Shown here: piece after piece, positions 1,574 through 23,875 of the stretch
How the letters are laid out: each line of letters opens with the position of its first letter
Position numbering within the stretch: the stretch's first letter is position 1
Assembly (NCBI GenBank): GCA_002256025.1
Contig: NKIB01000342.1
Location: forward strand, 1 to 33,577
DNA: 33,577 nt
Direction of reading: 5' to 3'
From: Asterionella formosa
Taxonomy: Eukaryota
Program-made: the position numbers and the translations under genes
The notes under the pieces: model-generated
The model's database searches: none
What the model saw: only the letters and a program-made list of their open reading frames with translations
What the model was told of the DNA's origin: nothing

Positions 1574-3919
1574 TTAGCTAGCATTCTTCTTTGCTGCAAC
1601 ATTAGTTCGCTTTCTTTTCTTGTCGCCGTTCGTTGAGTTCTCCATGGTTGACTTTATCGTAGTGCAATCCAGTCGTTCGTTTGCCTCGCTAGCTGCTGCC
1701 TCGTTCTCATCTTTGCTGTCATTGGAGCTTTCCCCTTCATTGTCGTCGTCTTCGTTGTCACTTGCATCTGAGCTATCATCAGATGACTCGCCATTGGTTT
1801 GCTTTAGAACTATCTCAAAATCTTCCGCATCGTCCACATTCTCCATCTCCTCCTCCTTTAATGCACCAAACATGGCATCGTTCAAGCGTCGGTAGTCTAC
1901 ATTCTGTCGCCGTCGCTTACCATGGATGATATTGGATTCATCTAGTGCACCTGCATCCACACTCGCGGGGACTGGATTGCGTTTAGCTCGCCTACAAGGT
2001 GGGCTAGACCCTGCCGAAAGGGCATCGAGTTCATCTTTTGGAATATTGAGTTCCACACTTGACATATCTTGCGAACTCCCATCATCATCATCATCATCAT
2101 CATCATGTCTCAGTGAAGCACCTTGTGAATTGGATTCATTGGAGTGAAAATCATCGTCGTCCTCGTCGTCACTGTCACTCCCTTCACCCAAGATAGGAGC
2201 ATTGTCCGTTACGCCTTCCACTCCAAAATAGGAAGCCAGATACACCGCTGTCTCACCAGCGACATCGCCTTCCTTCCACTTCATCGCCATTTCATACTCG
2301 TTCTCCGATTCTGGAAAAACATCGCCCACATGATTCCATGAGTGAATTGTATCTGCATCCTCCAAGACCCACTCATCACCTGTGTACTCAGATTGTACAT
2401 TCGCGACTAAATTGGCCATGGTAGTACATAACGGACAAAACCAATCATCGTCGTCTACTTCACTGACCACGGGCTTCAAGCATTGCATATGATACGCTCG
2501 AAAGCATCCCTGTCCATCACACATGAGCACATCATTCTCATCTGTTGCATCTCCCTTGAAACATATGCAGCATTTCAAATCTTCCAAGGAAATCATGTCG
2601 TCATCGACATCGCCACTGTCGGTCTTGGGATCCACTGTTTGTATTAGTGCTGACTTTGGGTTGTTAGTACAATTGTTGCTATGCAATGTAACTTCTAAAG
2701 GAATCATTCCAATGGCATTAGTTGAGGGCTTGTCGAATTTGGGAACCAGTCGTCGTCTCTGAATGTCATCATCCTGTGCTAGTCCCAACGGAAACCAAAA
2801 CTTGATTTCTTCTGTATGTTCCTTCACAAATTGGTACAACGCTGGAAGTGCAACGTGTTCATCTGTCCCTTGAATGTACTTGTTTAGTGACTGAAGCCAT
2901 TGCCTAACCCTTAGTTTGGAAGTTGCCAACTTGACAAAAGTTTGACACAATTCTTGAGAGGAGAGCAACCGTACAATGGTCAATGATTGTTTATTGTTTC
3001 TGGAATTGTTGTATGCTGCCAATGTTGCTTGTGCCAATCGCAATTGCTGCATTTGTTGGGAAATACTCTTAGTAAGGCGTTGTATCGTTGAACCAAAGGC
3101 ATGTAACTTGGCATGTTTGGCACTAAATTCCCAATCCCATTCGTCCTTTGTCATGGCTCGTGGAGTGGCGGCGTTGTTGTTGTTGTTGTTAGTGTCGTCA
3201 CTGTAGTGAGGGTAAATAATATTGTTTGCTTTGGTTGTAGATGATGATGATGATGATGATTGGCATAATAAACAATGCCATTCTCCTCGGGGTATAGTTA
3301 TAAGAGGTACAAAGTGACAACGTTGATGGTACGGTCGGTTGCAAGTATCACAAAAGACAATAGTGTTACTGGCGTCGTACAGTGATTCAGGAAGTAACAG
3401 ATTGGGCAATTTTCCTTGTTTTTTGGGATCGTCTTCCTCTTGTAACAGTGCTTGACGGTCTGATTCAAAAAAGGCGGTTCGATCAGCAAAATCAACGGCA
3501 ACATGACAGAGTACGCAGCAAATAGTTTCGTCATCATCGTCATCGTCCTCCTTTGGCTTGGAACTACCACCGGTTGGTTCTTTCTGTTTCCTTTTCGATT
3601 TTAGCTTGGGACTACCGGTAGGTTCGTTCTGTTTCCTTGTCGATTTCGGCAATGGCTTCACTCCAGTTGCTTTTTTATATTTTCGTGCTACTTCATCTGC
3701 GTTGTCATGTCAAATCGGACGAGTAAAAAGTGAGTGAGTATACTGGTATACCGAATTATAGTCATTTGAAAACCCCCAAAATGGCTCGGTAACTCGTGTT
3801 TCAGCTGCACTGGCGATTCATGAGTCAAATGTGTCCCATGCTGCCAATGCGGAATCCGCAAATTATCGTTTCCTACCTGCTGCTGCTGCTGATTTGGTTC
3901 CTCTCTTTCCTTTGGCCAT
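1574..3919 (-). CDS. Double PHD-finger chromatin protein (HAT3.1/PRH-like, no homeodomain seen); 2 exons, ~721 aa
   Basis: Exons 3919-3877 (MAKGKRGTKSAAAA, then G|GTAGGA) and 3696-1574 (GCAG| acceptor) join in frame as DEVARKYKKATGVKPLP. PHD1: CVLC...FCDTCNRPYHQRC...WHCLLC. PHD2: CCICFKGDATDENDVLMCDGQGCFRAYHMQCLKP...WFCPLC, followed by WNHVGDVFPE, an acidic tract and KRRRQNVDYRRLND, all reminiscent of plant PRH/HAT3.1. Confidence 0.9.
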
Positions 3920-4376
3920 TATTTATCAGATGGAATGATTATTTATGCTGGATATGTCAATATTGAATTGAATTGAATTGAATTGTTTCGTCTTTCTTAG
4001 TTGATGACGAACAAAGCAAAGCCATGGACGAATAAGCAAGGCTAGACTAGGTACCGGTAGTGGTGTATGTAGCAAAGTAAGTGAATTTTTATGTGATGGC
4101 GGACGATGACCACAAAATTTGTTGCTCGCGCCATTCTGTTTCAAGTTCGCGCGGGCCTTTTCGGGTGCATACGTATGTACGTACTGATACTTTCTGACGA
4201 CTGCTGCACGAATCACGTACCATATGTGTATGTAGGAGTATGACTCCGTACCTGGGTAGCCAACATTGCAATAGTGGAACAGTTCCAACAAGAATACACA
4301 CAAAAGGTCCCATTGCACTCGAGTCGAAATTTGCTAGAAGGCATTTTGCACGTTTAGCTTTATTTTACTTTAGCCT

Positions 4377-7300
4377 TTAGTGTAATTTAGATAGTAGCTC
4401 ATGCAAGGCTTCTGACATGGTCCCGTCAAGTTGATCCTTGACGACCTCATAGCAAAAGCTAGCAGACCCCCGTAACTCCAAAAGATGCTCGTCCATCCGC
4501 AGATGCAACAGAGTAGTTAGCAGACTGTCTGCCAATGCATCGAGGCAGGGGTCAGCAAAAGTCTTTGCTCGACATTGTAGCAATGCAGTCACTGTCAAGG
4601 TCCTACGTAGCATTTGGACGTCATTGCACGAAACCCTCCCTACCGGAAAGAGCGTCAGAAGGAATGCAAGGACTTCGTGAATGTCATTTTTCTCCATATC
4701 AAGAATCTCGCTCATGTATTCGGTATCTTCTTCCTTCCGCTGATGCTTTGCCAAGTCCTCGGGAGGCAATGTAGAATACCCCTTGCGAACACGAACATGC
4801 TCGTACACTGGTCCGTAGTTTATAAAGATCTCATGCTGAGAATCATCTGCTGGTAATGAAAAGAAAGTACTGCCGTCTGCCACACCAAGGAGGTAGTGCA
4901 CATTTCCCTCAGGATCATGCTCTGCTTTCACCGAAGCAACAGAATCTGGTCCGCATTCATTGACATAGGCTGGAATGTGTGATTTGGCTAGTTCATGGAG
5001 ATTGCCAGTTTCATCGTCGGTAATGTCAAATTGCAAGCCAGACTCGATTGTATCAAATGCCCACTCTTCACATTTAAGATTGTGAATATAATTCTTCACT
5101 AAAAAAACAGTTGCGTGTTTGCGGTCTTCTTTGCGAAATGGAGCATACACACCTATATCTAAGATCTCACCGGGTGCTAACACAAATGTGTCGGCCCCTG
5201 AAAAGGAAACGCAACTGACAAAGACCCCATAACCAGCATTGGGAATACCTGAGATCCTTGCCGAAAAGGTAAGTTGAAAGCCTCGAACGACCATGGTAAG
5301 TCGGGGAAGTTGATGATTGCCGTCCATCTGACTAACGAGTTCTTCAATTCTCATTTCTGGAGTGATCCAAGACCACCGATTTGCCATGACGGCGTTTTGA
5401 ATGTCATGGAACAGGCTGGTCGTTCCTGGGCAAGCACTCAATTTCTGATCATAATTGTTGCATCCACCCAACGCCCATGGTAGTGATAGCTTAGCAAGCG
5501 TAGGAATGCGCGATCCGCAGCGATTTCGGACTGTGTTTGCCAGAGTCCTGGATCGATCATCAAATACAACAGTAAATTGATAAAATGAATTGTCCATATC
5601 ATTTCGCTCACATTCTGTGACAGTCCCATAGACAATCTTGTTCTGACCGTCTAAATCTGTCCACTCTTGACAGTACCTAAGGCCTACAAGGAAGTGATCA
5701 TTCTCCTTTCGCAGGATTGACGCCCCAATTTGACGATAGAACGCATCTCGAATGCTATCCCAATCATCCCACTTTTGTCCGCACTTATAGAGGACTTCCT
5801 CGAGAGAACCAAACGTTCTTCCTGTAGGAGACACAAGTCGAAGGCCAATAAGTGAGTCGAGCGACTCTTCAGCTTTCACCTTGGAATTGCAAAACACAAA
5901 ACGCCACCCGGCTTGTAAACCAGCTGCAGCTTGTGCTTTCTGTGCCAATGGAATACGAGCACACATCTGTAAAGAGGATGTGAAAAATCCATTAGGGGTT
6001 GAAATACAATGCAGGATTTGAATTGATGTTAGATTGAAGCATTTTAAACCTTTACCTTTCGAAGACAAACTTCCATATCAAGCGGGCTTGTTGCAGAATC
6101 ACGGCTACGGCAGGTTTCACATCGGCCGCAATTTTCTGATTGGCAAAGGGAGCATTTGTTGCATCTTTTTTGAAACAACATGGCAGGCGAATATACAATG
6201 ACAGGAGCATCGTCTTTACTTCCTTGCTGATAGTAGGCATCTCGACGTTTTTGAAAATGCGATGGTATTGGAGGAGGCATTATTCCTGTTCCCTCATGAT
6301 ACTCTGCTTCAGTGTACATGTTGAGAATATTCCCCTTTGTCCATTCTCCGATATTTTGAATAATATCACCATCATCAAATTCCACCTACATTTATATATA
6401 AATATATATGCATATGTACAGATATTGTGTGCGTTCGTGTAGCATATTCGAGATAGGGACAGAAAGGGAGAGAGGGAAGACCATGTTGGTGAAATCATCT
6501 TGAACAAAAATTGTAAAATACAAAGCAAGAGAAGCACCTTCATCCAACTTACCGTATATCGAGGAGACTTGCTGGTAGTATTGTTGTCCATCATGACAAC
6601 ATTTGTAATCATTCCCCAATAAAAATTTCCATTTTTCGGCCACCTACAATATACGCGAGACCCAATTTCTCTAATATTTGTCGTCGTAGTGGTGGTGACA
6701 TCATCCTTAAAACTAATATTCGACTCATGATTTGTGTGTTTCAGGGTAGTAGTATTAGTGGTAGTAGTATCGATTGATGGAGATTGTGGCAGTAGTAGTA
6801 GTGATGGGTCCACAATAACAAGATCTTCTTCTTTTGTGGCTCCCAAGTGTGAATAGAGTAATGATAGATCCATGCCTTTGAATGTATCATCATCAATATC
6901 ATTATTCTCATAATCATTCAATGACCAATAGCAATTGCCATTCGGTGAAACAATTGTAAGCCCCGACTTGTTTGCGCAGGATTCCATACTAGGGTCTTGA
7001 AAACAAAAGCCCCACCCTTGTGGAAATCCAGGTATCGGTTGTACTCTTCGACCATGGTCAAAATTGCAACAAATCTGTTGTTTATGTATAAATAAATTTA
7101 TTGTATTGTCATCGGCATGAAGGAGCATTATTTATAAGAAAAATACAGCAAATATCAACATGCAAAATAATTAAGCAAAACATGCAAACAACAAAAAAAA
7201 ACATACCTTTTGTAAGCAAACTGGTTTCCATCCAATCCAAGTCATAGTAGTCCCTGTTGTGTAAACATTACGACAGGTCCAACATGCTTGACAATCTGGC

Positions 7301-7812
7301 TTTCGACAGGTATAACATTTTCCACAACGGAATCTTCGAAGTTCTTCCAAACTGGATCCAACGCTTCGTTTGGATCGGCCAGTATTATTTTTATTACTAG
7401 CGAAAGTGGAAGTACAACTAGCAGCGGTGGAGGTAGTAGTGGAAGTGGAAGTAGATGTAGTATTGTCTAACTCATTGTGCTTATTGTTGTCCATCTTGCT
7501 GTACCATGTACCGTAGCGAATGCGTTTGGTTGGAGATGCCAATACCTCTACAGTGGCCGTAGTATCATTGGTGGTAGTATCAGTATCAGTAGCAGTAGCA
7601 GTATCATGGATACTAGGACCGCAATGATGTTTGCCGACTTGCATTCTTTCGTTTTGCTGTTCGCCCAATTCCTTCCCTGAGTCCAGTGTAATTACTGGAT
7701 CCTTTGGAAGATGGTGGTCCATTACTCCTACTATCATGCATTGCGCAATGGTCTCATTTTCACCATTGCCATTGTCGTTGTCGTTGGCAGTGGTAACGAT
7801 GCCGGCTTCCAT
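4377..7812 (-). CDS. Multidomain chromatin protein: zf-CXXC, MBD-like, Tudor-like, zf-CXXC, MBD-like, divergent SET-like domain; 4 exons, ~1015 aa
   Basis: Exons 7812-7207, 7074-6553, 6385-6056 and 5966-4377 with three phase-0 GT-AG introns (AAG|GTATGT..CAG|ATT; ACG|GTAAGT..TAG|GTG; AAG|GTAAAG..CAG|ATG). CXXC1 RCGKCYTCRKPDCQACWTC...CLQKIC; CXXC2 RCNKCSLCQSENCGRCETC...CLRKMC; Tudor-like EIGSRVYCRWPKNGNFYWGMI...YTVEFDDGD; MBD-like PQGW...IVSPNGNCYWS and QAGW...LVSPTGRTFGSLEEV; SET-like SGIPNAGYGVF...AYVNE...EIFINYG. Confidence 0.85.
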
Positions 7813-10295
7813 CTTTTGATGTGTCGTATACTATGACCGACAGCAATTTAAAGGGGGCGGAGCCATGCATGATTTGAAGGAGACTGTGCGCTATTATTTT
7901 CGACGACACAGACAGTACGTATTGAGCAATACATACGTGTGCCGTATGGTACCAGGTACATACCGGTACTGGAAGTACAAAGGTCAACATTTCTTATATT
8001 CGTATGTACCAATGCACAGTGAGGGGTCCTGCATGAAAACCTCTCCTGCAGCTCGAACTAGGGTTAAACTAATAATATTGATTCAAAGAAATCAAACAGA
8101 AATTTTCTTCAGTACCGGTAAAACAATACATGTACCAGTATGAATATATCATCACTATCTGCTAATTCTACATACCATTTAACACCCCTTCCATATGCTT
8201 ACCAGTAGATACAGTCATCATTGGTCAAAGTATGAACATAGGTCAACTCTTTCTAATGTCAGGATGTAGGATCATCTAGCGAAAATGTGCCAGAAGGAAC
8301 TTCGGTTCTTTTACAACGCTAAATAACTAGAAATTTCGGGGCCAAACAGTTTCTTTGGCATAGTAAAAAGCCAAAGTTCCATTCTACAGCTTCTCTCCAA
8401 CATATTATAGAATATTGTTAGAATAATCTGTATCGAATTTTTTACCCAAGTTCAAGATCATAGCAGGGGTTTCAGTGCAGGAACCTTAATAAGCACACAA
8501 TAAAATTAAGGAATAAAGCAAAACATTCCTGTTACTCTACATTTTACTTGTTGTCTGCTACCTGCAAGTTGCAGTAAAATTTGCTGAAATGGACAATGTG
8601 TCGCAGGACAGGTGCTCAAAAAGATATCACAACTTGTTTGTGATGTAGGTTTTACAAAAAGTATTTTGTTTAAACGCGAAAACATCACATTGCTGAAAAA
8701 AGAAAATGACAATGACTGGTGCAATAGAGGGTCAACTAGAAGCAAAAGAAAGCAAGTCTTGCTTACTTTGCTTTATTCCCTCCAAAGCAATTCAAAATTG
8801 TTCTCCTTTTGATGCTGAAGTGGCTGATGAAAACAAACAATAATGAATGGTTCTTTATCAATTAGGATTTGAATATTCGCATGCTAGTGTCACCATACTA
8901 TAACTAAAATAACATACCACTGTAGGCATGCTGGCTGGACTCATGCTGCTCAGGGTACTGGTGGTACTACCTGAGGCAGCACACCTAAGCAGCACTGCTT
9001 GTATATAATTTTTTAGCTTCGATGATTTGATTCTTTTGTATTGATTATATATATCCCAGTAAAACTACAGAGTACAGTGCAGTTGTCATGGCTGAGTGGC
9101 TGGAGAATTTATTGTCTCAGCCTTGATTATGACAAAAATAACAAAAATCTCCATGAAAAATGAGAATGACGCTTTGCTATTTGGTACACATATTAAACAT
9201 GATAGAAAAAACATTTATAAAAGAATAGTTGTGATAACATAAATATTGAAAACGAAAATTGAAAAAGCCAGCGGGGGCGCATTTTTTAATGAAATTTGAA
9301 GATCACAATTGAAAATGACCATGTTATGAGCAGATTTGACACTAACACATAGTAGATGTACAACGACTAGTAGCTACAACAACAGCAAAACAATACCATT
9401 ATTGATTAAGAAGCAAAGATGTGAATAGTTATTGACATGACGGTATATATATATATATAGGTTGTGTACCACATGTTTATTGAACCAAGGCCAGGCAAAT
9501 GTCCATTTTCTTTTAGTACATAAGAAGAAACATATGGTAGACGAACACCAGTCAGCACGCGATTTGTTGTACATACTACCATACAATGCCGTTAAAATGT
9601 ATAGACAACACATACCGGTACACCATTATGTGTGTGCCCGGTACTCCGAGGACCAAGGTACCAGGTACCAGTTACGAGGGAACACTCCGATTAGCAGGGA
9701 CGGGGTACCAAGTACCACTCCGGAGTACCAGGTAGCTGCAAGGAACAACGAATTCATTGTTGTTCCAACATAGAAATTTACAAATTGTCAAAATATGAGA
9801 ACAGTTATTACTTTAACTTGAAGTTCACAACGATAAGCATGCACCTCCTATTTTCCGGTGGTGCCGCCTACATAGCAACCGGTAGCTGTTCGAAGGCTGT
9901 GGGGAAGGTGACGTGGAGTCTTTGAGTGAAGTTCTCGTGAGCGAAGCAACCATGATAGTACGTGGTACCAGCATACCATCCGTGATAAAATTTGGCGGTG
10001 CCGTGGCACTTAGCAGTGCCCTGGTACCTGTTACCAGGTACTACTACTCCTAGTAAGGTTCTGAACATCGTGGTACTGCATTCCGCGGACCTCATGTTTC
10101 CATGATTCAATGTGAAAGCATTTGGATATAACTGATCATCGTTTATATACGAGCATCGACAGGTCTTTAGAATCCGCAATGCGAAGGGTGCACAAATGTG
10201 AAACGAACAAGGCAATCTTTCCACCGACAGCGAACCATCTTCACACGAAGCAAGGACAACAAAAAGCCCATACCGACGCATTACAAGAACCAATC

Positions 10296-19210: not shown

Positions 19211-20715
19211 CTCCAAGATGGTACACCAATTGATGAGATTCAAAGGATTATGGAAGCGAATCCCCAATTCATCAAGGTCAAGGACTGGATGGAAAAACTT
19301 CCTTTGCACAAAGCATGCGAGAACAACACATCACTTGAAGTCGTGAAATTCTTGGTCGAAAAATACCCTGATTCTGTCAAGGTCAAGGACTGGTTGAAAA
19401 AAATTCCTTTGCACTGCGCATGTGAGAAAAATGCAGCACTTAAAGTCGTGAAATTCTTGGTCGAGACATACCCTGATTCTGTCAAGGTCAAGGAATCTTA
19501 CAAGGGATTTCCTTTGCACAAAGCATGCGAAAACAACGCACCACTTGAAGTCTTGAAATTCTTGGTCAAAACATATCCTGATTCTGTCAAGGTCAAAAAC
19601 TGGTTGAAAAAGCTTCCTTTGCAATGTGCATGCGAGAACAATGCACCACTTAATGTCGTGAAATTCTTGGTCAAAACATACCCTGATTCTGTCAAGGTCA
19701 AAAAATGGTGGAAAGAACTTCATTTGCACTGTGCATGCGCGAACAATGCACCACTTGATGTCGTGAAATTCTTGGTCCAACAATATCGTGATTCTGTCAA
19801 GGTCAAAAACTGGTTGAATGAACTTCCTTTGCACTGTGCATGCGAGAACAATGCACCAATTGAAGTCGTGAAATTCTTGGTCCAACAATATCGTGATTCT
19901 GTCAAGGTCAAGGACATTAATCAAATGCTTCCTTTACATTTTGCTCTAAATGAGAATATGAATCTTGAAGTGGTGACATTCTTGATTCAGGAATATCCCT
20001 ATTCTTTGATGGTCCTCGACTCTTATCAAAGACTTCCTTTGCACTGTGCAATTGAAAAAAATTGCCTCTTGAAGCTGTTGAGTTATTGGTCCAACAATAC
20101 CCTGATTCTGTCAAGGTCAAGATCAAGGTCAATGATCAATGGCTTCCATTGCACTTTGCGCTGGCACGAAATTCTCCAATTGAAGTGTTGAGATTCTTGG
20201 TCCAGCATTATCCTGATTCTGTCAAGGTCAAGGACAGTAAGCAACGGCTTCCATTGCACGTTGCATGTGCAAATAATTCGCTGCTTGAAGTTGTGCAATT
20301 CTTGGTCCAGCAAGATCCTGATTCTGTCATGGTCAAGTGCAATCATCAATTGCTTCCTTTGCACATTTCATGTTTCGGAAAATCGCCACTTGAAGTTGTG
20401 AAGTTGTTAGTTCAACAATATCCTGATTCTGTGAAGGTCAAGGACAATGATCAATTTCTTCCATTGTATGTTGCATGTGCAAACAGCTCGCCACTTGAAG
20501 TCGTGAAATTCTTGGTCCAACAATATCCTGATTCTATCGAGGTAAAGGACAGTGAGCAAAGACTTCCTTTGCAAATTGCAGGTAGAAGCAAAGCACCACT
20601 CTATGTGATGGAGTTTTTGGTTGAGCAATTTCCAGATTCAGTATTGTTCCCAGGCATGGGTGATTTGACAAACGAAAAATTTGGATATTTGCTTTTTACT
20701 ATGTATGATGAATAG
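19211..20715 (+). pseudogene. Ankyrin-repeat gene (13 x 35-aa units) interrupted by a frameshift; pseudogene, assembly error or recoded
   Basis: Consensus xxxxLPLHxACxNNAPLEVVKFLVxxYPDSVKVKD with 105-bp DNA periodicity. ORF 19250-20191 leaves the repeat frame at the A7 run 20055-20061; one extra A restores EKKLPLEAVELLVQQYPDS and joins ORF 20062-20715. An in-frame TGA at 19208 precedes the repeat-like LQDGTPIDEIQRIMEANPQ. Confidence 0.85.
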
Positions 20716-21546: not shown

Positions 21547-22482
21547 TTATTCAATCCCTACAATCCTTTTCCGCACAAACCCCATTTTTTCATTTGCATA
21601 GTCATCCTTGTAGTATTCATTTGCCAATGATTCCGTATTGTTGTCAAAGAACTCGAGAAGTCGCGTGACTGCGGCTGTACTATGCTTGACATTGGACAGG
21701 GATTGAAAAATCGATTCCTCCCCAGAACTTCCCCACCCAGTTATACCAAAGTCTTCCCATGCTCCCAACCGTTCCAGCAATTCTTTTGCATCTGCTGCCG
21801 CTGTTTCAATATGGCCGACGAAATTGATGGTTTCCCAAAATCGTCGCTCCATGCGATTCGATTGCGGCATCCAATGTGGATCTACACATTGTTGCATCAC
21901 ACCAAGAAACCCTACCAACGTGGATGATTCGTTTCCACAGGATGGACAGCAGTGACGATTCACATACATGCCACCCTTGCGAACGGCTTTGTCCAAATAT
22001 GCTGACACGAACCTTTCCTTGGGGTCACGAACAAAAATGGCCCTGGTCCAGTCCTCTGCTTTCAACATTGAAGTGGCTTCGTTGATGGAATAGTTATAAA
22101 GGTATTTCAATCCATTGACATGTGGGTTGTGGGGCATACCTGAGCCGCCTAGCTTGCGCCAGTTTGGATATCCGGCCATTCTTCTGAATAATTGCTTAAA
22201 CACGGTACATCCGACTTTCGGGATCGTAAAGAAAATCAATTTATATTTCTTGAGAACTATAGGAGCCCCGTCCCACAAGCCTGGTTTGTAGATATAGCTG
22301 TTTTGTGATATATATGAATCACTTTCTTCGTTGACTTGGATTGTTGATTGCCTAACGTGTTGCGACTGTTGTATCATGAACGTAACTGGTGCAACACGCA
22401 GCCGTGTTTGTTCAACGCAAATAGTCGTTATCAGTGCCATGGAAAAGGCTAATGATATCCGCAGGCTTCGTCTAGGAATCAT
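21547..22482 (-). CDS. Golgi-type carbohydrate sulfotransferase (Sulfotransfer_2 / CHST-like)
   Basis: First ATG at 22482; N-terminal basic then hydrophobic anchor (MIPRRSLRISLAFSMALITTICV); PAPS-binding 5'-PSB motif FFTIPKVGCT; 3'-PB motif FVRDPKERFVSAY; DPHWMPQ; NFVGHIET; YYKDDY. Confidence 0.92.
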   Translation of the reverse strand: MIPRRSLRISLAFSMALITTICVEQTRLRVAPVTFMIQQSQHVRQSTIQVNEESDSYISQNSYIYKPGLWDGAPIVLKKYKLIFFTIPKVGCTVFKQLFRRMAGYPNWRKLGGSGMPHNPHVNGLKYLYNYSINEATSMLKAEDWTRAIFVRDPKERFVSAYLDKAVRKGGMYVNRHCCPSCGNESSTLVGFLGVMQQCVDPHWMPQSNRMERRFWETINFVGHIETAAADAKELLERLGAWEDFGITGWGSSGEESIFQSLSNVKHSTAAVTRLLEFFDNNTESLANEYYKDDYANEKMGFVRKRIVGIE

Positions 22483-23875
22483 GAGCGATGTTGGCGCTAT
22501 CACAAGACGTACTGATGTGTCGTCGTTTACGAAGGGATTGGTGACTGAAGCGATGGGTTTGTTCGAATGCCGAGCGTTATCAAAACCAAGGGCGTGACAC
22601 GGCTTTCAACCTGCTGGTGAGCGTACAGGAGTACCGGTAGATCGGTCGGCAGTCCACACGATGCAACCAGTGCGTAATATTTATTAGTTGCATCGATTAT
22701 TCAAATTTATCCCATTTCAACTCGTACGATTTTCTCCGGCTCAATTGCCCTACATAATGTGAGGTTACATAGCTCTAAGCTACGGATCGATGAATAATAT
22801 ATATGCATGTACCGGTAGTAAATTTCAAATCGGCAACTACCGGTAATACGTATCGAAAAAACAGTTATTCTATTCACGTTACTGTAAAACCCGGTGTCTT
22901 GTACCCCTCAATGTACACAGCCATGATTATAACACACCGGCCGGGCCTTTTTTGATCGCCAAACATTATGAAGAAACCAACTTCACCACCGTTTTCTCCA
23001 TAGTCAAAAACATAAATAACAACATTCAAAGAGATATTGTTTTAGGTTTGGTTTCTTGGATCAATCACATTTCGATTTTTGGTGCACTGGCTGGCGTGCC
23101 CGAATTTTGTAATGGCTGCAATAGTAATTTCTATGGTGTGTAAACTTTTGTACCTACTTCTATACTAGTAATAATTTGTGTAGCGTCTACAGTATTAATC
23201 TTGATAGAAATTGATGCTAACCAACCAAATCATTTTTTCGGTATCATAAAGTATGACAACCAAGAAATATCTCTGCATCAGGCAGAAGAAAAATATTGTT
23301 ATGGAAGGATAAAGCAAGCCCAACAATATCAAGGCAACTGCCAGAGCATATTCGGTTCAGCCAAAGCAGATCCAAGTTGTATAGTCTAGTACTACACCCA
23401 TTAATACTGTTGTAGGATTAGGTAAAAAAGAGGACACATTCTAGGAATTAGTATACTGGTAGATGCCATCACGAAACTCGGGCGTGAACTGGTGACAACA
23501 ACATATCTTTTAATGTTGCTATTTACGTTTTAGACTACGGAGAATGCGGTGGTGAAGTTGGTTTTTCATAATGTTGGTTGATCAAAAAAGGACCAATGTC
23601 TTGTACTCCCGCCCTCTAAGTGAAATCAGTCGTAGCTGTGTACATTGAGGGGTACCAGTACGAGACACCAGGTTTTATGGTGCATGAATCCCACGAGAAG
23701 ACAAGCAAACCAACAACCGCATCCTTGTGACAACAAATCGCTACTGACGTTGACAATGAACACATTTCGCTTCAGACTGGGCATGATGGACGATGATCGG
23801 CATGGTGAAACACGTGAATTGCTGGAGTCACTTTTCAGGCAAGGTACAAAAACCAGGTGAATACTAGAAATAATT

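Follow-up and report, generated by a model that had tools for sequence, protein, structure and literature searches.

Does a single gene of the diatom Asterionella formosa combine domains that may read DNA and histone marks with a domain that may write such marks, and does its product respond to DNA methylation? The question is raised by a locus on the minus strand of contig NKIB01000342.1, of which a stretch of 33,577 nucleotides (nt) was analyzed (in the following the window; all positions refer to this whole stretch). A first-pass annotation had joined four open reading frames (ORFs), each running from stop to stop (7171-7830, 6280-7131, 6044-6385 and 4377-6077, minus strand), by three phase-0 GT..AG introns into a protein of 1015 amino acids (aa) with the domain order CXXC, MBD-like, Tudor, CXXC, MBD-like and SET, and had proposed that this protein senses the CpG methylation state. 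The gene structure and the domain order turned out to be correct, and a second barrel and a helical C-terminal domain can be added. The proposed sensing of CpG methylation is not borne out by the residues of the CXXC and MBD-like domains. The reading we prefer, with a probability of roughly 0.6, is that of an active lysine methyltransferase whose reader modules would recruit it to chromatin, as judged mainly from predicted folds and conserved motifs.

The length of 1015 aa for the joined product of the four exons was read from the sequence and checked by script. Exon 1 (7207..7812, minus; 606 nt, aa 1-202) starts with the ATG at 7812-7810, and the database protein P0160 has the identical start methionine. 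An in-frame stop codon (7831-7833) is located just 5' of this ATG. The exon encodes an acidic and Thr-rich low-complexity N-terminus and most of the first CXXC finger. Exon 2 (6553..7074, minus; 522 nt, aa 203-376) encodes the 8th Cys of this finger and the first MBD-like domain, followed by a linker rich in Thr and by half of the Tudor barrel. The remaining half of the barrel, a linker and most of the second CXXC finger are encoded by exon 3 (6056..6385, minus; 330 nt, aa 377-486). Exon 4 (4377..5966, minus; 1590 nt including the stop codon at 4377-4379, aa 487-1015) provides the 8th Cys of the second finger, the second MBD-like domain, a reader barrel, the SET/PR-like domain and the helical C-terminal domain. 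Because exons 1 to 3 all have lengths divisible by 3 nt, all three introns are in phase 0. They have GT..AG ends and a GC content of 25-35%, compared with 39-46% for the exons. Intron 1 (7075..7206, minus; 132 nt, 25% GC) is located inside the first CXXC finger between K202 and I203 (CLQK/IC), intron 2 (6386..6552, minus; 167 nt) cuts the Tudor barrel at SPRYT/VEFDDGD and intron 3 (5967..6055, minus; 89 nt) lies in the second finger at CLRK/MC. If left unspliced, introns 1 and 3 bring in-frame stop codons and intron 2 shifts the frame. A tblastn search with the joined protein revealed no second copy of the gene within the window and matched only the internal repeat described below.

Transcription and splicing of the gene were followed with RNA contigs from public libraries (runs X1, X2, X7 and X8), which were aligned to the window. 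These libraries contain as much as 85% of the words sampled from the stretch carrying the gene, and exons account for 89% of this stretch. The mRNA extends over 4342..7821 (minus), with the 3' end at about 4342 and the 5' end at least at 7821, based on the contigs X1 record 2 and X2 records 3 and 8. One poly(A)-library contig of 3020 nt (X1 record 2) carries all four exons. It covers 4342-5966, 6056-6380, 6551-7074 and 7207-7741 and provides RNA evidence of the kind that the first-pass annotation had named as a check. Its loose T8 end at 4342 represents the poly(A) tail of a minus-strand transcript, 35 nt past the stop codon. At the other side a contig of X2 extends to 7821, which places the proposed start codon within the transcript; no RNA depth was found past 7868 in the aligned contigs. 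Intron 3 is skipped (5966 to 6056, 89 nt) in three of the four runs (X1, X2 and X7) and intron 1 (7074 to 7207, 132 nt) in two of them (X1 and X2). The joint of intron 2 was not listed because a repeat mask (6381-6421) covers it. Three letters between the pieces of X1 record 2, together with the ambiguous 'AC', make up the five letters expected for a junction of 6385 with 6553. P0160, a protein of 717 aa from a separate source, is 100% identical over residues 1-688 of the joined model. It aligns ungapped over the junctions, as do the relatives over all three of them. Separate genes, a possibility raised for the four ORFs, are ruled out by the RNA contig with all four exons and by P0160. The locus is one expressed four-exon diatom gene which gives one spliced mRNA.

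Differences between strains were also found in the RNA. A contig of a related strain in X8 differs from exon 4 at 22 or more positions. Among the differences listed, 17 are in third codon positions, 16 are synonymous and 6 are non-synonymous, and none of these 6 falls into exon-4 residues 236-400. Two insertions or deletions are listed for the coding sequence, of 3 nt and 6 nt, both in frame: in environmental RNA contigs 3 nt are absent at 6789 and 6 nt at 7587, within Thr-rich low-complexity coding stretches. The linkers appear to differ in length among strains. A joint of 129 nt in X2 (6769 to 6899) was considered as an additional intron and rejected. It has TC..TA ends, a depth of 4 and a shorter side of 21 letters, and is located in a low-complexity Thr-coding stretch; it was treated as a variant or an artefact. 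Loose contig ends were found at 6746 and 6919, which flank the region of this joint.

The catalytic part of the protein is predicted for its C-terminal half, where the first-pass annotation had noticed SET-like motifs. Exon 4 was modelled with AlphaFold2 (AF2) at a predicted local distance difference test score (pLDDT) of 91.3 and a predicted template modelling score of 0.85. The model has a SET/PR-like fold at aa ~691-886 (exon-4 residues 205-400; 4767..5354, minus). The top matches in Foldseek are SET7/9 and PRDM9 (E ~1e-3, probability 0.99-1.0). In VIA, the PRDM9 chain 4c1q_A aligns with a Z of 10.8 (159 aligned residues, root-mean-square deviation (rmsd) 3.8, 17% identity) and SET7/9 with a Z of ~10. 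SET7/9, SET8, EZH2, MLL1/2/3, Set1, SETD2 and PRDM2/3/5 reach Z values of 8.9-10.1. All 50 of the structural matches listed are SET or PR domains, and 137 of 985 aligned chains have a Z of at least 8.

SET domains are characterized by a GxG motif, an N-H motif and the Tyr of a C-terminal motif of the E-L-x-x-D-Y type. Conservation was evaluated in an alignment of 40 family sequences, in which the mean column identity is ~28%. The two glycines of a GxG motif, G245 and G247 in exon-4 numbering (G731 and G733 of the protein), are present in 40/40 sequences. The same applies to N336 and E337 (N822 and E823). Y384 (Y870) is invariant in 36/36 sequences, Y274 in 39/39 and H357 in 37/37. Further invariant residues, again in exon-4 numbering, are D270, G272, P276, K291, D314, G361, E379 and R392. 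The invariant GxG, N and Tyr fit the cofactor and catalytic motifs of SET domains by order and spacing, not by residue-level superposition. No conserved Cys cluster of the pre-SET or post-SET type flanks the domain in the family alignment. Moderately conserved Cys are limited to C99, C119, C252 and C299 (19-31 of 40 sequences), and none is located past Y384. The AF2 model contains no long insertion in the SET region. Downstream of the SET/PR-like domain, the model shows a helical C-terminal domain of ~130 residues (aa 887-1015; 4380..4766, minus). For this domain, a profile search of the PDB gave no family and only chance matches of the coiled-coil type. In the ESM Atlas, weak matches (score 0.80) to diatom SET-domain clusters were obtained, which we took as a lead only.

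Upstream of the catalytic part, both of the CXXC fingers described in the first-pass annotation are present. Finger 1 (aa 163-204; 7069..7326, minus) spans intron 1 and has a linker of 18 aa between Cys 6 and Cys 7. Finger 2 (aa 451-488; 5961..6163, minus) spans intron 3 and has a linker of 14 aa. A regular expression scan identified the complete 8-Cys pattern C-x2-C-x2-C-x4-5-C-x2-C-x2-C...C-x4-C in both, with the last two Cys in the C-x2-K-x-C spacing noted before. In P0160 the Pfam family zf-CXXC (PF02008) is matched with 27.9 bits at a cutoff of 26.5 (E 2.3e-6, two stretches, the best at 448-488). The single exons reach 21.8 and 23.3 bits (exon 1 alone with E 1.9e-4) and stay below the cutoff because the introns cut the domain and the last Cys is encoded by the next exon. 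The phase-0 introns 1 and 3 are located at the identical site of the finger (C-L-x-K/x-C), and aa 162-350 align with aa 450-640 in blastp (E 4e-15, composition correction off). From this internal repeat and the common intron site, a tandem duplication of a unit of CXXC finger and MBD-like domain is evident, with the intron included.

Both fingers are basic, with isoelectric points (pI) of 9.3 and 8.8. CpG-reading CXXC fingers of type 1 have KFGG in the linker and a DNA-binding KQ or RQ dipeptide, according to Long et al. (2013, PMC3685328). KFGG was found in none of the 46 CXXC modules of the family, the window fingers included. Only 2 of 46 modules, neither of them a window finger, have [KRH]Q in the 6 residues that precede the 7th Cys. 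Both window fingers thus lack the features of type-1 zf-CXXC domains (KFGG and KQ/RQ). Another motif, K-x-Q just past the 8th Cys, is conserved in the family (K in 25/30, Q in 26/31). The spacing from the finger to the following G-W is 13 or 17 residues in 25 of 46 modules; finger and MBD-like domain may act as one composite module.

The two MBD-like segments recognized earlier by their GW...SPxG motif are located directly behind the fingers. MBD-like domain 1 (aa ~212-285, GW...SPNG; 6826..7047, minus) was assigned by its blastp alignment to the second copy, and MBD-like domain 2 (aa 496-570, exon-4 residues 10-84; 5715..5939, minus) by its predicted structure. Exon-4 residues 1-196 were folded with AF2 together with 38 relatives (pLDDT 89.2). 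Foldseek then matched the second domain with MBD2 (6c1a_B; probability 0.99, E 0.13, rmsd 3.4, 57 columns). MBD2 chains as a whole reached probabilities of 0.98-0.99 and E values of 0.13-0.23, and the E values across MBD2, MBD3, MeCP2, MBD4 and MBD1 were 0.13-0.6. In VIA, the domain aligns with MBD2 6c1u_E (Z 5.2, rmsd 3.3, 61/69 residues aligned, 20% identity). A search of 48,161 chains independent of Foldseek ranked MBD2 6c1a_A second (Z 5.0) and gave a Z of 4.3 for MBD1 1ig4. Among the matches listed, all that cover exon-4 residues 2-84 are MBDs. The structure comparison suggested with the first-pass annotation therefore gave both an MBD fold, for module 2, and a SET fold.

Sequence searches did not recognize this domain as an MBD. 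The Pfam family MBD (PF01429) gave no match at E<=1 in the window pieces or in P0160, and among 40 family sequences it found a single one, with E 0.092. Searching each MBD-like segment by phmmer against PDB sequences returned no MBD, but ELAV-like protein and acetyl-CoA carboxylase at E >=0.06. DUF7028 weakly matches both segments (E 0.21 for segment 1 in the exon pieces, E 4.3e-4 in P0160), and no paper on DUF7028 was found in the literature. MBDs which read methyl-CpG, as in MeCP2, MBD1, MBD2 and MBD4, use two Arg fingers together with an Asp and a Tyr. These positions were mapped by the register SP-x-G-x-x-F-[R]-S, the predicted strands and the known MBD residues, not by residue-level structural alignment. 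In this mapping, the second Arg-finger position is occupied by W in module 1 and by G53 in module 2, and by R in 11 of 38 family members. The Asp position is G in both window domains and in 27 of 37 sequences of the family. The pI of the MBD-like domain has a median of 5.8 in 33 relatives (10 of 33 above 8), and that of module 1 is 4.4. By this mapping the MBD-like domains lack the conserved Arg fingers of methyl-CpG readers, and most of them lack a basic character. The claim that the protein senses CpG methylation is therefore not supported, since the window fingers also have neither KFGG nor the KQ loop.

Between the two modules, a predicted Tudor barrel is encoded at aa 338-395 (6329..6669, minus), spanning intron 2 as had been proposed. 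In P0160 it matches Tudor_5 (PF18359, the SETDB1-type Tudor 1) with E 5.1e-6 and 26.6 bits at a cutoff of 31; BAHCC1-like_Tudor and Tudor_2 were matched as well. Several family members have Tudor_5 matches, and four relatives exceed the Tudor_5 cutoff (P0050 with 37.3, P0071 with 39.2, P0073 with 41.1 and P0151 with 33.7 bits). Between the window Tudor and the P0050 segment that exceeds the cutoff, the identity is 47%. A second barrel of the Tudor/BAH type with a helical extension, which was absent from the earlier list of domains, was found between MBD-like domain 2 and the SET/PR-like domain (aa 571-672, exon-4 residues ~84-186; 5409..5714, minus). In VIA it aligns with the BAH domains of EBS (Z 5.1) and DNMT1 (BAH1, Z 5.0-5.1), and equally with the Tudor domains of SETDB1 (6bhh; Z 5.0, rmsd 3.0, 58 aligned) and RDM15 (Z 4.8, rmsd 2.7, 56/58). 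Further matches are the AIPP3 BAH domain and the Tudor domains of Spindlin and UHRF1, and the whole range of Z is 4.7-5.1. L93, W102 and G114 (exon-4 numbering) are barrel residues that are invariant in the family.

Taken as an active lysine methyltransferase, the gene product would be a nuclear chromatin protein of 1015 aa. Its C-terminal unit is most likely an active S-adenosylmethionine-dependent protein-lysine methyltransferase and probably acts on histones. The N-terminal part would form a variable targeting array, composed of a CXXC finger with its MBD-like domain, the Tudor barrel and a second CXXC finger that abuts the C-terminal unit. The Tudor and the second barrel could read methyl-lysine marks. 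The basic CXXC fingers, which do not have the usual loop for reading CpG, might still bind to DNA or to another protein, and the MBD-like domains may be structural or protein-binding modules rather than readers of 5-methylcytosine. Judged by its fold and motifs, the protein could plausibly be a histone writer. For the suggested action at TE/gene boundaries no evidence was obtained in this analysis, which did not cover the transposon context.

Several observations weigh against this reading. Most SET domains carry N-H, whereas the residue after the Asn is an invariant Glu here, and the N-E pair could mean an altered cofactor binding. At E<=1 the Pfam family SET (PF00856) matched none of the 40 family sequences, and also none of 24 + 6 longer relatives at the cutoffs used. 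Neither exon 4 in phmmer nor the profile of the family alignment gave a significant match among the PDB sequences. Apart from 18 residues of PRDM16 (E 0.45), the sole related entry, these were chance or coiled-coil matches. When the four exon translations were searched separately, Pfam gave zf-CXXC below the threshold and a weak Tudor_2, but no SET and no MBD. The Pfam part of the earlier proposal is therefore confirmed for zf-CXXC, which exceeds its cutoff, and not for MBD and SET; the Tudor_5 score remains below its cutoff. The Z values of the MBD and of the second barrel are only ~5, and a Z below 8 can, according to VIA, reflect a common arrangement; for the MBD the modest value is in line with its length of ~65 residues. 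In addition, the MBD fold was modelled for module 2, and module 1 is assigned by its alignment to module 2.

At the transcript level, residues 689-717 of P0160 (window ~5267-5360, minus) correspond to another frame of the DNA of exon 4. An error of assembly, a variant with a frameshift or a minor splice form may explain this end, for which no joint was found among the contigs of the four RNA runs. Unspliced contigs also run through introns (X2 record 4 at 6357-6573, X8 records 17 and 18) and could be pre-mRNA or carried-over DNA. The two X8 records (5630-7129) come from the related strain, are 95-99% alike, and retain parts of introns 1 and 2 as well as intron 3, so that similar intron sequence is present in this strain.

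An obvious alternative is a sensor of the DNA methylation state. Unmethylated CpG would be bound by the CXXC fingers and methyl-CpG by the MBD-like domains, and the histone mark written by the SET domain would depend on this. The protein does have two CXXC and two MBD folds, the fingers are basic, the conserved K-x-Q past the 8th Cys could contact DNA, and 11 of 38 relatives have the Arg of such a reader where the second finger is expected. MBD1 is a precedent for the combination of MBD and CXXC (PMC3685328). The residues of the two domains nevertheless argue in the other direction. KFGG is missing from the fingers (0/46) and [KRH]Q is rare (2/46, neither a window module). By the mapping with known MBD residues, the second Arg finger is replaced by W in one window domain and by G in the other, and the Asp by G. 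The mostly non-basic MBD-like domains (median pI 5.8 in 33 relatives, 4.4 in module 1) and the single Pfam MBD hit among 40 family sequences (E 0.092) point the same way. We therefore regard methylation sensing as unlikely.

If the SET-like fold were kept only as an interaction platform, the protein would be a catalytically dead scaffold. Some PR domains may serve as interaction platforms only, and the PR domains of PRDM3, PRDM5 and PRDM2 are among the closest structural matches. The SET domain escapes Pfam and sequence searches, and N-E replaces the usual N-H, which would both suit a scaffold. This explanation has to account for the GxG, the Asn, the C-terminal Tyr and the further Tyr, His and Asp, which are invariant (36-40 of 36-40) at a mean column identity of ~28%. 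Such invariance at low overall identity is the pattern expected for an active site under selection, and a dead scaffold is improbable to a similar degree. Activity on mainly non-histone substrates, with the reader modules serving only for localisation, has also to be considered. SET7/9, one of the best matches, was crystallised with TAF10, ER and DNMT1 peptides (according to the entry titles), and the diatom domain has no Zn clusters of the SUV39/SETDB1 pre-SET/post-SET type. The array of CXXC fingers, MBD fold and Tudor/BAH-like barrel points to chromatin instead, as do PRDM9, SET8, EZH2 and MLL, which are equally good matches. Of the explanations weighed here, we find this one very unlikely.

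The preferred reading of a chromatin-targeted lysine methyltransferase can be compared with several known proteins. SETDB1 has the architecture triple Tudor, MBD, pre-SET, then a bifurcated SET and lastly post-SET, as given in PMC8397983. SETDB1 (KMT1E) and the diatom protein both have Tudor domain(s), then an MBD fold and then a SET-fold domain in one chain. The window Tudor matches best with Tudor_5, and the second barrel aligns with the SETDB1 Tudor 6bhh (Z 5.0). Unlike SETDB1, however, the diatom protein has two CXXC fingers, and its SET domain is unsplit and without conserved pre-SET and post-SET Cys clusters. Its best folds are PRDM9 and SET7/9 rather than the SUV39 type. An assignment as SETDB1 orthologue was rejected, since the pre-SET and post-SET clusters and the bifurcation are missing and the best folds are those of PRDM9 and SET7/9. 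MBD1 combines an MBD with CXXC fingers (PMC3685328), and with regard to this source the window fingers resemble the type-2 fingers of MBD1, with 8 Cys and without KFGG and KQ. MBD1, with an MBD and three CXXC fingers, has the order reversed relative to the diatom protein, in which each CXXC finger precedes an MBD-like domain at a fixed short spacing, and the diatom protein has in addition a catalytic domain in cis.

MLL fingers belong to type 1, with KFGG and KQ (PMC3685328). KMT2A/B (MLL1/2) share with the diatom protein a CXXC finger and a SET fold in one polypeptide, and the SET domains of MLL1 and MLL3 align with Z values of 9.1-9.3. MLL has no MBD and no Tudor domain, and its SET domain is seen by sequence models, in contrast to that of the diatom protein. 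PRDM9 and SET7/9 are the best structural matches and likewise lack Zn-cluster pre-SET and post-SET modules. PRDM proteins carry C2H2 arrays and SET7/9 an N-terminal beta domain, whereas neither has CXXC, MBD or Tudor domains. DNMT1 has a CXXC finger upstream of a BAH/Tudor-like barrel, and its BAH1 domain aligns at Z 5.0-5.1. It is a DNA and not a protein methyltransferase, its CXXC finger is of type 1, and in the diatom protein an MBD-like domain lies between finger and barrel. Because the defining features of SUV39/SETDB1, of type-1 CXXC fingers and of methyl-CpG MBDs are all lacking, the protein should not be filed under any of these groups.

Relatives of exon 4 are numerous. Among 1.84 billion cluster representatives, 425 were found at E<=1e-3, of which 143 even reach E<=1e-30; the family representatives were clustered at 50% identity. 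The three relatives with an organism name are all diatoms and belong to three classes: Ditylum brightwellii, Attheya septentrionalis and Entomoneis paludosa. In the databases they are named 'hypothetical protein', 'Uncharacterized protein' or 'CXXC-type domain-containing protein'. Constant in the family is the unit of MBD-like domain, barrel, SET domain and helices at the C-terminus, and the N-terminal part is variable. The full 8-Cys CXXC pattern occurs in 31 of the 151 proteins examined, with 1-5 copies each; among the remaining proteins, truncated ORF calls are frequent. Among the representatives listed, 40 of 150 start exactly at the M-C past the position of intron 3. This suggests a conserved break at the intron-3 site and gene callers that often keep the last exon only. 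Three relatives (P0094, P0099 and P0154) have weak C2H2 matches and DUF7128 ahead of the C-terminal unit and no CXXC finger, an arrangement like that of PRDM proteins. Two long relatives (P0013 and P0055) have a sub-threshold PDZ_6 match at the N-terminus (24-25 bits at a threshold of 27), which is unusual beside chromatin domains. In the literature, no description was found of a CXXC finger, an MBD fold, a Tudor domain and a SET domain in one chain, or of such a diatom protein, among full texts outside subscription journals. Each of the domain types is already known, and their combination in one chain appears to be new.

In the window, a second gene of the chromatin type is located downstream on the same strand. 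A 711-codon ORF (1574-3709, minus) lies ~630 nt past the poly(A) site. Its product contains long acidic tracts and a pair of PHD fingers (E 4.9e-14 for Pfam PHD, E 1.3e-4 for PHD_NSD). With this PHD-finger neighbour on the minus strand, two chromatin-type genes are arranged in tandem. Farther away, in the regions 19211-20715 (plus) and 21547-22605 (minus), two adjacent ankyrin-repeat ORFs (Ank_2 E ~1e-32 each) and a Sulfotransfer_2 ORF (E 6.4e-24) were found. The two ankyrin-repeat ORFs are probably one split gene.

A more far-reaching idea, which we consider doubtful, is that diatoms carry a large 'cryptic' family of SET/PR methyltransferases that is missed by profiles, in which the MBD fold and the barrel are hard-wired. 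The CXXC and MBD-like modules would then duplicate as a unit and form a new reader of DNA or chromatin, with K-x-Q replacing the lost KQ loop. If this were true, a histone mark would be placed according to the specificity of the composite module, possibly for the CpG methylation state, in organisms whose transposons are methylated. The tempting inference from CXXC and MBD to methylation sensing is corrected here as unsupported. The family has been hidden by two things, the SET domain that is invisible to Pfam and the gene calls that contain the last exon only. It offers concrete modules for tests of DNA and histone-mark reading, and once its members are recognized as candidate methyltransferases, the chromatin toolkit of diatoms gains an entire class of putative writers.

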